Assembly (NCBI GenBank): GCA_964016885.1
Contig: OZ024757.1
Coordinates: 12,276,001-12,340,000 of the forward strand
Origin: Eledone cirrhosa
Lineage: Eukaryota
Length of the DNA: 64,000 nucleotides
Direction of reading: 5' to 3'
Shown: piece after piece, positions 1,013-53,094 of the stretch
Layout of the letters: every line of letters starts with the position of its first letter
Numbering within the stretch: the first letter of the stretch is position 1
Made by a program: the position numbers and the translations under genes
Notes under the pieces: model-generated
Databases searched by the model: none
Told to the model about the DNA's origin: nothing
What the model saw: only the letters and a program-made list of their open reading frames with translations

Positions 1013-1151
1013 TTAGAAAGTGAGGGTTTTTTTACAAATTGAAAAATAACCGAGGTGTCCTACACGAGTGAAAGCATAAAGAAAAAGAGATGAAATCGAA
1101 AATGAAACTGGAGTCTTATTTTTTTTTTTAAATATATATATTTATTTGATT

Positions 1152-1189
1152 CCTTTACCGGTTTCGCAGTTCTTCTGCTTTTCAAAAGG
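1152..1189 (-). ncRNA. Variant hammerhead (U3-A8 core), mirror copy
   Basis: Reverse complement of 1262-1299. Confidence 0.7.
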
Positions 1190-1261
1190 TGAGTTGAGAT
1201 GGAGGGTCTGTGGTTTTTCTCACAGATGTGAGAAAAACCACACACCCTCCATCTCAACTCA

Positions 1262-1299
1262 CCTTTTGAAAAGCAGAAGAACTGCGAAACCGGTAAAGG
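1262..1299 (+). ncRNA. Variant hammerhead (U3-A8 core)
   Basis: CCTT-TTGAAAA-GCAG aagaa CTGC-GAAAC-CG-GTA-AAGG. Palindromic ACCGGT stem III, AATAAA at 1305-1310. Confidence 0.75.
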
Positions 1300-2129
1300 A
1301 ATCAAATAAATATATATATTTTTAAAAAAAAATAAGACTCCAGTTGCATTTTCGATTTCATCTCTTTTTCTATATATATATATATATATATATATATATA
1401 TATATATATATATATATATATATATATATATATACTCACACTTACAGATACAGAGGAGCTGTTGGCCAAATAACTTTAGATATCAATGGGTTAAAGACAT
1501 ATGTAAAATCAATTAGAGGTCAGTTCTTCAGTCTAAAGTCCCTTGGAGAATGTCACCAAGTAATGTGTGTACAAGTTGAAAACATGTATTTATACATATC
1601 TATAAATCTCTATATATGTACATATACACACATACACCCACTCCCAGATATATATATTGAGTGAGTGTGAAAGACCAAAGGTCATTATTGAAAGTCTCTG
1701 GATGTGTATATTTCACAAGTTATTTTATATTTTTTATTGGAGAAGATAAGACCAGTCACTTGCACACTCTACTCTAAATAACAGTGTTGTACATTCACAA
1801 TTATTTAAAATTACAATCATAACATTCTGTATTAACATTTAGTATTACTGTATACTGCTAGTAATATGTACTATATATATACACTTTATTTAGTAAAAAA
1901 AACATTTTTCCTGCAAAAATTTGATTGCACTGTTTTGTTTTCACTTATGTATTTTTTGAAAATGTAATTTATTCATCATAAAAATTAAATGATAGCATTC
2001 TATATGTGGGTGGGCACCTTTTATCTCCTGGCAACCAATATTTTTAGACCTAGTCCACCACTCTATCTCTCTCTCTCTCCCTCTCTCTCTATATATATAT
2101 ATATCGTCAGTCGATCGACTTTCATCAAA

Positions 2130-49467: not shown

Positions 49468-50789
49468 CTTTGATAGAATTTAATGACAAATTATGGACCA
49501 GAGCAGATAGAGATAGCAATTTTGACATAACTATGGGATCTTCCGACTCAGCTCAGGTAACTGACCTTGTGGGCTTATTTTTAATCAATTCGCTACATAG
49601 GAAAATACCTGGTACTACCGGAGGTTTATATAGGGATGACATGCTTTTACTTATTAATAATAATAACCCTGAACTAAATAGAAAATGTAAACAAATTACA
49701 AAATTTTTTAATTACTTTAACCTTAAAATAGAAATTGAGAACAACCATAGAATAGTCAATTTCCTAGATATAACATTAAATCTCAACACATGTCTCCACT
49801 ATCCTTTTCACAAGTTGAATGAAAACTTAAACTATGTCAACTTTAACTCTAACCACCCCAGATCTGTCAAAAACACTATAGTAAACTCAGTCCAAAAACG
49901 TATCTCTAGGATTTCGTCGAATAGAAAGATTTTTGACGAAAAGGCCCAATACTATAATGATGCACTAGCTAGGGCAGGGTATGCTGATAAGATTGTGTAC
50001 ATAGATAATGATAGACAAACTAAACAAAGTAACAACTTTTTTAATTACGGCAACAACATTAACAACTATAATAGAAAGCATTACAATAATTCCAAAGGAC
50101 AAAAAAGAAATAGAACTAGGAACATAATTTGGTTTGCCCCCCCTTTCTCACTAAACATTAAAACCCACATCGCTAAATTATTTTTCAAAGCTCTTGATAA
50201 TCGCTTCCCTAGAACACATAGGTATCACTCAATCTTCAATAGGCATACAATTAAATTAACCTACTCATCCACCAAAAATTTAGCACAAAATATTAATAGA
50301 ATAAATAATAGGAACTTAAAACCTACTGATAATAGCATAAATAATATACAAGTTAACAAATGTAACTGTAGAGATAGATATAAATGTCCGTTAAATAACA
50401 ACTGCTTAGTTAAAAATATAGTATACAATTGTAATGTTAATACTGACTCTAATTCTTTTAACTACGTCGGTTCCACATCGACGGAATTTAAACTTCGCTA
50501 TAATAACCACAAGAATTCTTTCACAGATCCAAATAAAAAATCTTCAACGGCACTATCAGGGGTACTCTGGCAACTTAAGCTAGATAACGTTAGATATTCG
50601 ACGGCTTGGAATATAGTCTCAAGAGGGATTCCTTTTAATTCATCCTCTGAGACATGTGACCTCTGCGCAGAGGAGATATTCTTTATACTAAAATCTAAAA
50701 ATTCCCTTAACCTACGGACAAATTTATTCAGTTGTTGCAAACATAGATTAAACTCAACGTTTAAATATAAATTTAAATTTAAAATGTAG
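49468..50789 (+). CDS. PLE RT (C-terminal half) and GIY-YIG ORF, right arm, open but 5'-truncated
   Basis: MGS, YRDD, IIWFAPPF, CNCR..CPL, IVY..YVGST, CDLC.EE. Codons upstream of 49468 are antisense of the left copy. Confidence 0.88.
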
Positions 50790-52294
50790 TATATTTAGTT
50801 TGATTTATATTTATATGAGAACTAGCCGATAAATCTTTTGATTCCTAAATCTTTGATTCCCTCTTTTTACTCTTTTTATTGTTTATTTTATTTTATTTAT
50901 TTTTATTTTTATCTAAACATTCCTCATGAAAAATTAAGCTACCCTAAAAGCCGATGCTCCAAATTTTTTGAATTAACCTTACACTAGATAAACTTCTATA
51001 TTAAATATAGGAACATATGTAGACATTATTGGACATCATAATCTTTTTGCGATATTCTTTGCTAGATGTGATTTGATAGATAATTTTTGGCTTTGTCGTC
51101 TAATGAACTTGGCAATATATTGTCAATTAACTTTGAAGGGTTGTTCTTTGTGGTTTATTTTTATTTTTATTTTTATTTTTATTTTTATTTTTATTTTTAT
51201 TTTTATTTTTATTTTTATTTTTATTTTTATTTTTATTTTTATTCTTTTAGTATTGTAGTATTCTATAATATTTTTATTTTTTATTTTATTTTTAATATTT
51301 TTATATGTAAATTTTTAATACGTAATATTTTTTAATACGTAGTATTTTTAATATGCAATATTTTTATTATGTAATATTCTTTCGTAATATTTTTTTAGTT
51401 TTCTATTCTATATTTTTATATATTTTTACTTATTATTATTATTATTGTTATCTTTGTTTATAATATAATATATTATATAATATATATTTTCGATTAGTAT
51501 ATTGAAATCTGCTCTCTATTTCTGCTTGATAGATAATCTTGTAGAGTAATCGCAAGAATAATAATACGCTCAAATTTTTATACCACATTGAGAATGTTTT
51601 CCGGTAACCTAGAGTTTGCAGAGTGAATCAGTTGGATTCACATTGATGTTTGTAGCTGTCACATAAACATATGAATTTTTTAAAACTAAACATAAGATAA
51701 TGAATTTTCACACATTGTGAATACTTGTTTCATTCAGGAATACTGATATTTACAATATAGTGTAAGTTTTATAAATACTAATACATTAAAACATAGGGTT
51801 TTCTACGCCTCGAATATGTCTGGCTATTTTTAAATTTTTTTTTTCTCTCTCTATATCTCTCTATATCTCTCTATATATCTCCCTTACATTAATACTTGAG
51901 CTAAATAAATAAATAAATAAATAAATAAATAAATGTATCATTGATACACTTACTCAAAATGACCTCCCACTACCTAATTTTCTATATATATATATATGTA
52001 TCTATCTCTATTTCCTCTCTCTCTATATATATATATCTCTTTCTGTCTCTTTACATGAAGCTCTTCGCTTTATCTATTTTTCCATCTCTCTATTTTGTCC
52101 CATGCATTTCTTCTTTTTCTTTTTCTTCTTTTTCTTCCTTTTCTTCGTTTTGTCTTTCTTTCTTTCTTTTTTCCCTCTTTTCTTTCTCTCTTTCTTTCTC
52201 TCTGTATTTTCACTGCTAGCGTAAACCTCTTCAAATGAAGTTGATGTTTATTACGGTATGTCGAATATATTTATCTATAAAACTGTTTATATTG

Positions 52295-52360
52295 TATTTT
52301 GTCTGATGAAGGCATAGCATATTGTTAATATGATATCCCCGAAATATATATAATGAAATA
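52295..52360 (+). ncRNA. Type I hammerhead ribozyme (family C), mirror at about 45832-45900 (-)
   Basis: TATTTTGT-CTGATGA-(stem II CATATT gtt AATATG)-GAAA-T-atat-ATA-ATGAAATA with overlapping AATAAA. Confidence 0.72.
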
Positions 52361-53094
52361 AATATGGTTTTATAAATATAGTTTTCCATTTATTTAATAT
52401 TGTATATATATATATATATATATATATATATATATATAAATGAAAGGTATAGAAAACATTGTAGTAAAAAGCCAACAGTATTCCATAATATATAAGTGAC
52501 TATAGAGTCAACATGGGAAAATAGTTAACGTAAGCTGTGGGAAAAATAATTCAAACTCATCTCAAAGAGAATCAGGATATAGATTCCTCCACAGAATTTA
52601 GTGAAATCCAGGGAAGAATCAATAAAGCCTTAACTCATGATAAAATAAAGTTTAAAATACTCACCGTTTGATTTGCAAAAACTTCAAATGCTCTGTATAG
52701 TCTTAAAGACGATTTCACATATATATGTGTATGTATTTATCTATGCATATATATATATATATATATGTATTTATGTATGCATGTATGAATATATAAAATA
52801 TATATATATATATATATATATATGTATGTATTTATCTATGCATGTATGTATATATAAAATATATATATATATATATATGTATTTATCTATGCATGTATGT
52901 ATACATATATATATATATGTATGTATTTATCTATACGTGTATGTATATATATATATATACATATATATATATATATTTATTTATCTATACATGTATGTAT
53001 ATATAAAATATTGTCATGTTTACAAAAATATTTTTCTAATATCGTGTTTAATATTTTATATTGTCGTCTGCTTCTCTTCTCACGTGGTTACTTA

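Follow-up and report, generated by a model that had tools for sequence, protein, structure and literature searches.

How does a retroelement that inserts into (TA)n come to lie there as two inverted copies of itself, one of which regularly ends before the other? The question is raised by a stretch of 64 kb from the 3.0-Gb genome of Eledone cirrhosa (contig OZ024757.1, positions 12,276,001 to 12,340,000; hereafter the window, i.e., the whole stretch analysed). Comparison of the window with itself reveals six head-to-head palindromes and three solo copies, every one of them ending in (TA)n, and on sequence grounds the palindromes are head-to-head insertions of Penelope-like elements (PLEs) into (TA)n. 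The families of the palindromes are labeled A to F; family A also has a solo copy, and family G is present in the window as solos only. The explanation that we regard as probable is twin priming: target-primed reverse transcription would start from two sites, each docked at a hairpin, and at one of them realignment would be abortive. Its observed basis consists of fixed ends, the pairing of long with short arms, two hairpins, covariation and extra repeat units; the remaining steps we infer.

Two Fixed Ends per Family

Alignment of the arms indicates that, in every palindrome of the window, one arm is shorter by 55-162 nt and joins (TA)n. The short arm is on the minus strand and the long arm on the plus strand in the palindromes of families A (11233-14424, with the short arm at 11233-13078, including a 662-nt spacer, and the long arm at 13079-14424) and D (22089-24381); the long arm is on the minus strand and the short arm on the plus strand in those of families B (14941-18287), C (45704-52403), E (1013-1371) and F (9818-10343). 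The last base that the short arm has in common with the long one is found at 14262 (A), 45790 (C), 24300 (D), 9940 (F), 1080-1081 (E) and 14996 (B), and typical copies of family D have this end at 24304 rather than at 24300 as in the window. The initial annotation had proposed one shorter arm, joining (TA)n, for each inverted insertion; this is seen in all six palindromes and the coordinates agree to within 1 nt. The sequence by which the long arm exceeds the short one, the tail, measures 162 nt in family A (14263-14424, plus strand) and 55 nt in family B.

In the genome, exact anchors situated just upstream of the short site match 2,067 (A), 4,927 (B), 3,477 (C), 25,418 (D) and 11,613 (E) copies. 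In pattern scans of the first 100 matches of each of these families only two classes of end exist, as predicted in advance by the initial annotation, which had expected a bimodal distribution of 3′ termini. Among the first 100 of 1,912 family A matches, hand counting gave 48 short and 52 read-through copies. The two defined priming registers that had been postulated are thus supported by the fixed ends, and an in vitro precedent already exists for a Poseidon PLE in the part of that work available to us (PMC11167929). In contigs of four public sequencing runs, loose ends in TA occur at each of the two sites, and the short site has one loose end of repeat type; the best-matching run possibly derives from the assembly's own sample, so that this is not independent. 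No RNA run was listed as holding the elements, which speaks neither for nor against their expression. We also observed, at some ends in family E and at one in family D (C14:37802877), that the TA tract is preceded by a CT-type dinucleotide run or by a 4-nt repeat; slippage of the reverse transcriptase (RT) may be creating new microsatellites there.

Could the short arms result simply from chance TA microhomology, or from later microsatellite-mediated deletion? A TA match of 2-5 nt is present at both sites, and one site of family F drifts within a longer TA-like run. Nevertheless, 178 of 178 TA-joined ends of family A, at loci of the same genome that had been selected by anchors near the short site, fall at two sites despite 13 alternating A/T runs in the last 525 nt. 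Longer internal TA runs (9-13 nt) in families B, C and E never serve as TA-joined ends, the short site of family D lies outside any alternating run of 4 or more, and a later deletion would not select exactly one arm per palindrome. Scattered ends, chance TA placement and later deletion had been named at the outset as the outcomes that would speak against two registers; what is found instead are two fixed sites, unused TA runs and a strict pairing of arms (see below). The last two of these rule out microhomology or later deletion as the cause at loci picked by anchors near the short site, and we consider this possibility extremely improbable.

A Bulged Hairpin Behind Each End in Five Families

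In four families of the window a bulged hairpin starts close to the short end, namely at 14266 (A), 45784 (C), 24310 (D) and 9935 (F). It consists of a closing stem of 4 bp, a bulge of 2 nt on the 3′ side and an upper stem that varies, and occupies 14266-14299 on the plus strand in family A, 45765-45784 on the minus strand in family C and 24310-24333 in family D. Folding predicts the hairpin in families A, C, F and G, and in part in D, with z-scores of -1 to -2. The three solo copies have it too: at 40567-40600 in the family A solo (38013-40727, plus strand), and at 866-887 and 10473-10494 in the two solos of family G (691-958, plus strand; 10400-10641, minus strand), all three with long ends. 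Further copies of the bulged hairpin lie in older tails not assigned to a family, at 25208-25226 and 57267-57299 (both plus strand), the second resembling that of family A.

Two families are devoid of the motif. Folding of the family B tail gives no bulged hairpin and its read-through sequence is also without it, which upholds, together with the arm alignment, the earlier description of family B as asymmetric by 55 nt but lacking the hairpin. The hairpin formerly assigned to family E at 1069 has to be withdrawn: the look-alike does not fold in this manner, and no second copy occurs in the family E read-through sequence.

Beyond the long end, read-through copies of families A, C, F and G contain a second copy of the hairpin (hairpin 2; in family A visible only in such copies, e.g., L062:4556-4572), and in family D this was found in about 17 of 100 listed matches out of 110. 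In family A, 8 nt separate the long end from hairpin 2. Hairpin 2 is absent from every terminal end; never being copied, it could act only in the RNA. The proposal that the two registers flank a single RNA structure does not quite hold for families A, C, D, F and G, in which each register has a hairpin copy of its own just 3′ of it. The gap from the short end to the hairpin, first given as 3-11 nt, was correct in that the end sits shortly before the hairpin, but it is best expressed as an interval, because bases within the TA match could come from either the primer or the template. Including this ambiguity, the distance from start to hairpin for the short and the long site, respectively, is 3-8 and 5-8 nt in family A, 5-7 and 7-9 nt in C, 5-8 and 3-6 nt in D, 4-8 and 6-13 nt in F, and 6-8 and 5-7 nt in G. 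The short site of family G is absent from the window and thus an out-of-sample case; its 6-8 nt are measured to the first hairpin. Overall, the sites precede their hairpins by some 6-9 nt, and a distance of six or seven nt suits 9 of these 10 sites; one exact ruler for all sites was tried and rejected, as it fails on the long sites of D and C and on most long ends of F.

The position of the hairpins also bears on the suggested likeness to a telomerase template boundary. The geometry is reversed: on the sense strand the hairpins are 3′ of both ends, and the template boundary element is located where the template has its 5′ end, on the opposite side, according to the accessible part of PMC12632851. 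A hairpin behind the start site would act as an anchor and not as a telomerase-type boundary, and the bulged hairpin, as judged from its sequence context, likely is a docking site, still putative, for the RT.

Relatives from other organisms point in the same direction. An alignment of 34 proteins was used to retrieve 78 metagenome loci at 29-37% identity, on short contigs. At least one hairpin is present in 36 of the 45 loci with enough upstream sequence, and at least two upstream of the open reading frame (ORF) in 24 of the 45, near positions -60 and -130 relative to the ORF match. Altogether 62 hairpin matches compare with 1.9 in shuffled sequences, with 11 on the reverse strand and with 26 in 95 kb of ORF. 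For covariation, 69 hairpins were collected from 48 loci without a pairing filter and compared with 5,000 shuffles. Pairs 1-3 of the upper stem are paired in 59/69, 38/60 and 28/38 cases, against 46.9, 22.4 and 14.9 when shuffled, and exceed all 5,000 shuffles; pair 4 is marginal (p 0.02) and pair 5 is not above the shuffles. Thirteen ends on the same strand, away from contig ends and at hairpin-bearing loci were considered, to the exclusion of contig-terminal, reverse-strand and hairpin-less matches: ten have a hairpin at -4 to 6 nt, another has it at 13 nt and two miss. By eye, the hairpin can also be recognized in three of six published Hydra consensus sequences, taken from the portion of the PMC8557442 supplement that we consulted.

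Long Ends Pair with Short Ends

Over the seven families, about 187 of about 193 palindromes combine one long with one short end. Family A gave 84 inverted junctions, 55 with both outer ends classifiable and 29 with an internal pseudo-long terminal repeat (pLTR), an interrupted alignment or the edge of the locus. All 55 classifiable junctions are long+short (binomial p 6e-17 against 0.5), as are the outer ends of eight compound insertions. Hand counts in the listed matches gave 34/35 for family C, 30/30 for D (counted after one distant pair turned out to be two insertions), 25/26 for B and 19/21 for E; in samples selected by a long query, family F gave 19/20 and family G 5/6. The exceptions comprise a short+short pair in C (L134), an end of intermediate position in F (L197), a long+long pair in G (L337), a nearly long+long pair in B that duplicates a long+short insertion (L250, L251), and, in E, two pairs of long ends lying far apart, possibly independent insertions. 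Of the duplicated family B palindrome, only one copy has its short arm prolonged nearly as far as the long end, for which gene conversion is a candidate.

The strictness of the pairing speaks against the idea that the hairpins mark RNA cleavage or 3′-end formation, yielding two RNA species on whose ends the RT would start. A conserved bulged hairpin at a fixed distance from an end might equally resemble a guide for a nuclease, but two free RNA species would also produce long+long and short+short pairs, seen in 0 of 55 junctions, and a Poseidon element of Anolis, PAc, initiates internally on uncut RNA as described in the consulted part of PMC11167929. We regard this scheme as quite improbable.

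Neither arm seems to be a plain copy of the other, unless deletions came later: at the 55 family A junctions, the short arm extends further 5′ in 23, the long arm in 19, and both are equal in 13. Twelve of the 55 long arms are tail-only or halted at the short site. Whether long arms cluster there was examined, and the case is not convincing, only 4 of 55 ending within about 20 nt of that site. The expectation that solo copies keep the full tail is borne out by the three solos of the window, but not genome-wide. Twenty-nine family A copies looked like lone short copies: 17 have a hidden inverted partner, often with only 10-180 nt of tail, one has an internal inverted piece, and 11 have no partner; 13 of 17 apparently lone long copies are true solos. 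Likewise, the proposed tie of the short class to inverted arms stands insofar as short is strictly paired with long in palindromes, but lone short copies exist too. Palindrome centers also recur at fixed points, with anchor spacings of about 378 (C), 298 (E) and 109 (D) and at family A reference positions 3579, 3718 and 3775, as if the RNA had a defined 5′ end at which the RT runs off; many insertions consist of the pLTR only.

These counts matter for an alternative, corresponding to the boundary idea of the initial annotation, in which priming happens at the long end alone. The first cDNA would fold back, and the second arm, copied from it, would be stopped, or cut by the endonuclease, at the boundary of the first hairpin (hairpin 1). 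One long and one short arm are directly accounted for in this manner, 13 of 55 junctions are symmetric, and two papers offer related ideas, namely resolution by the endonuclease as the origin of the tail (PMC8557442) and self-priming (PMC3846280). On the other hand, the 23 of 55 short arms with sequence missing from the long arm, the 12 long arms that are tail-only or nearly so and the 11 solo short copies would all demand later deletion of the long arm. The same hairpin stands at the same distance beyond the long end, where it is not copied, leaving hairpin 2 unexplained, and both tail boundaries act as RT start sites in vitro (PMC11167929, as far as accessible). Fold-back is hence, in our judgment, unlikely.

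Extra Repeat Units at Family A Short Ends

In family A, the putative priming site of the short arm (14250-14262, plus strand) has an A-B-A′ arrangement, and some ends carry additional copies of a 7-nt unit (14251-14257) or of a 9-nt unit made of the same bases plus two in TA phase; realignment over 4 nt in either phase predicts both lengths. Extra units occur at 11 of 48 short ends among the matches listed (the first 100 of 1,912). A genome-wide count with one anchor gave 2,607 family A copies, 1,252 of them plain read-through and 381 with an extra unit, 14 of the latter being read-through. Extra units are therefore present at about 367 of 1,341 short ends (27%, the 1,341 including any other non-read-through variant) versus 14 of 1,266 read-through copies (1.1%; Fisher p 4e-97). 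By hand count, the first 30 repeat loci have 1, 2, 3 and 4 extra units in 17, 7, 4 and 2 cases, 7 of 13 multi-unit arrays combine 7- and 9-nt units, and the long-arm partners of repeat-bearing short arms have extra units in 0 of 16 visible cases. At three loci, L296 (G000:C1:211715500-211724300), L297 and L495, extra units are found on both arms in differing numbers, and the internal pLTR of L296 is free of them. In family B, which possesses a comparable micro-repeat, extra units are present in 35 of about 2,900 copies, and rare cases in families D and E are at the long end.

Slippage of DNA after insertion, aided by the adjoining TA tract, could also create such units, in which case only the two-site rule would be real. 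The short end indeed has a 5-nt realignment match beside the unstable (TA)n, and 14 read-through copies carry extra units as well. Slippage does not readily explain why frequency is equal in young and older arms (reference identity of 15 reiterated and 43 plain arms does not differ, p 0.38), why 7- and 9-nt units are mixed within arrays, or why family B, also with a 5-nt match next to (TA)n, has them in only about 1% of copies; we assign it a low probability. The fold-back scheme discussed above predicts, through stalling at the hairpin 1 boundary, the same 7- and 9-nt units.

The likeness to telomerase that the data support is thus a different one from a template boundary: an A-B-A′ template at 14250-14262, whose copies appear as extra units in the product at the family A short site. 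From this arrangement, it is likely that these repeats are added much as telomerase adds its own.

A Candidate Mechanism and Its Difficulties

In the twin-priming mechanism that we favor, the endonuclease would nick both strands of (TA)n; one copy of the protein on hairpin 2 would start at the long site and another on hairpin 1 at the short site. If the two formed a dimer on a single RNA, the absence of like-with-like pairs would be accounted for. Both cDNAs would stop at variable points and then join head to head, and extension of a single primer would give a solo long or a solo short copy. At the family A short site, the enzyme would stall after 7-8 nt while still anchored, realign the cDNA end on the repeated segment, recopy that segment and finally escape into the element body. 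Private A-to-G marks, which could tell one RNA from two, were sought, and no edited copy was present among the family A loci examined.

Several observations weigh against this mechanism. The individual hairpins are weak by z-score, hairpin 2 of family A reaching only +0.15, and the covariation shuffles ignore relatedness. No one distance suits all ten sites (7 nt misses the long site of D and 6 nt that of C), and in family F the majority of long ends are 14-20 nt away from hairpin 2, in a TA-like run of greater length. Up to 6 pairs violate the long+short rule, and families B and E obey it just as strictly without a bulged hairpin, so that the hairpin would be the solution of one clade and not a general cause. 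The 14 read-through copies with extra units, some with plain short partners, do not fit easily, and a stop-and-slip model yields identical units. Long arms bearing an ORF require an RNA in which hairpin 2 follows the ORF, putatively a tandem or circular RNA, and long ends could instead be regenerated through annealing to a TA tract that had been transcribed.

Comparison with Known Systems

Complex insertions of endonuclease-bearing (EN+) PLEs, with their one-sided tail, are already published (PMC3846280, PMC8557442). In the sections available to us they resemble the present ones in the head-to-head, 5′-truncated inverted copy, the tail at one end, the partial tandems and the (TA)n targets. They differ in that tails are 55-162 nt here versus 30-40 there, and pairing is nearly strict here versus “optional” or “often”; the tail there is tied to no RNA element, hairpins or stem-loops being mentioned nowhere in the main text of PMC8557442. 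The accessible part of the same paper names the mechanism of inverted ends and one-sided tails in PLEs as open, and that of PMC4209133 deals with PLE hammerheads only.

For PAc of Anolis, in vitro work demonstrated two internal RT start sites at the tail boundaries, cleavage and extension of both strands and little primer homology, and a dimer is predicted (PMC11167929), all of which is similar to what we propose. PAc starts, however, within one AC-rich stem-loop inside the ORF, and the text at hand reports no hairpin pair, long+short coupling or repeat addition, and leaves the RNA determinant and later steps unvalidated; the bulged-hairpin motif was not seen by eye in the PAc RNA as printed. 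Telomerase and DRT10, as treated in the consulted part of PMC12632851, share the A-B-A′ template, realignment of the nascent end, serial repeats and a related RT clade. There, a 5′ stem-loop stops copying and the product consists of repeats; in the present elements, the hairpin lies 3′ of the template, the majority of events are repeat-free and copying continues into the element.

In L1 twin priming, each of the two target ends serves as a primer and a 5′ inversion with microhomology at the joint results, with the second primer at variable internal sites and arms that do not overlap. The second site is fixed in the elements studied here, and their arms usually overlap.

In a search of openly accessible papers, supplementary figures apart, neither the pair of hairpins nor the strict long+short pairing nor repeat addition by an EN+ PLE turned up. 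These three points are, as far as print could be searched, new; already known are the tail on one side only and the existence of two start sites for the RT.

Classification of the Elements and Their Surroundings

The full tandem unit of family A is 4.19 kb long (locus L062) and encodes 819 aa (L062:4593-7052) with RT and C-terminal endonuclease. By motif, a single ORF with RT plus a GIY-YIG-type endonuclease at its C terminus, as expected of EN+ PLEs, is found in L062 (819 aa), in L254 (738 aa) and in the ORFs of families B and D; pLTRs from partial tandems, inverted copies, the tail and a hammerhead in the pLTR are further shared traits. The Hydra-clade markers in the part of PMC8557442 available to us are an RWK-type motif, DKT, a CxCX5C linker, CxxC and CxH around E and N, the lack of CCHH and a (TA)n target. 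Motif reading detects RWR, DKT, CxCX5C, CxxC and CxH in L062, L254, L255 and L368/L369, and by these protein criteria families A, C, D and G belong to the Hydra clade of C-terminal EN+ PLEs, with which they share protein motifs, (TA)n target and hammerhead. They differ from it in the family A unit, 4.19 kb against the usual <3 kb, and in the hairpins, unremarked in that text. Families B and E have a CX4CxxC linker in place of CxCX5C without CCHH and are, by sequence, of Neptune or Nematis type. Two clearly distinct Hydra-type ORFs (L255, L256) are located between family D pLTRs. Family F has a 567-bp tandem unit bearing both hairpins, in which no ORF was found; at loci L370 and L373 this non-coding unit is probably mobilized in trans by a Hydra-type protein.

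Hammerhead cores are situated at 15217-15244 and 18039-18066 in family B and at 775-799 and 10560-10587 in the two family G solos, and hammerhead-like motifs in family C at 45850-45891 (minus) and 52303-52344 (plus); that of family A (14174-14218, plus strand), with a variant core, was read by eye and not caught by a strict scan. Pfam gave no match for five PLE fragments of the window, and an Rfam search of L062:3500-4700 returned three weak matches, all far under the gathering threshold.

Long imperfect TA tracts with stacked insertions of several PLE families were noted at 10642-11237, 14425-14940 and 18284-18657, as well as at L375 and L380. The window additionally contains a LINE-type element without long terminal repeats and with an RVT_1 match (18700-21537), another PLE fragment with a CX4CxxC linker (41769-42572, minus), two long intron-free ORFs of 780 and 656 aa (31283-33625 and 33775-35745, both plus) that resemble host genes with repeat-type domains, and tandem arrays of 23 bp in about 56 copies (7559-8843) and of 91 bp in 4 copies (44796-45164).

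Biological Implications

A motif of 20-35 nt with a fixed distance to both ends, together with the strict long+short rule, gives direct experiments, and the motif predicts element boundaries when Hydra-clade repeats are annotated. PLE RTs are near relatives of telomerase, and natural repeat addition by an endonuclease-bearing PLE, if true, would show how such an activity could arise. More tentatively, and with distinctly less confidence than in twin priming itself, the Hydra-clade PLE may be pictured as a two-headed enzyme, each half on one of two identical RNA hairpins, that starts at fixed distances, each half on one strand of the cleaved target, and performs anchored, telomerase-like repeat addition on an A-B-A′ template. 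Should this picture be correct, hundreds of genomic copies would record the step from abortive initiation to repeat addition in the sister clade of telomerase.

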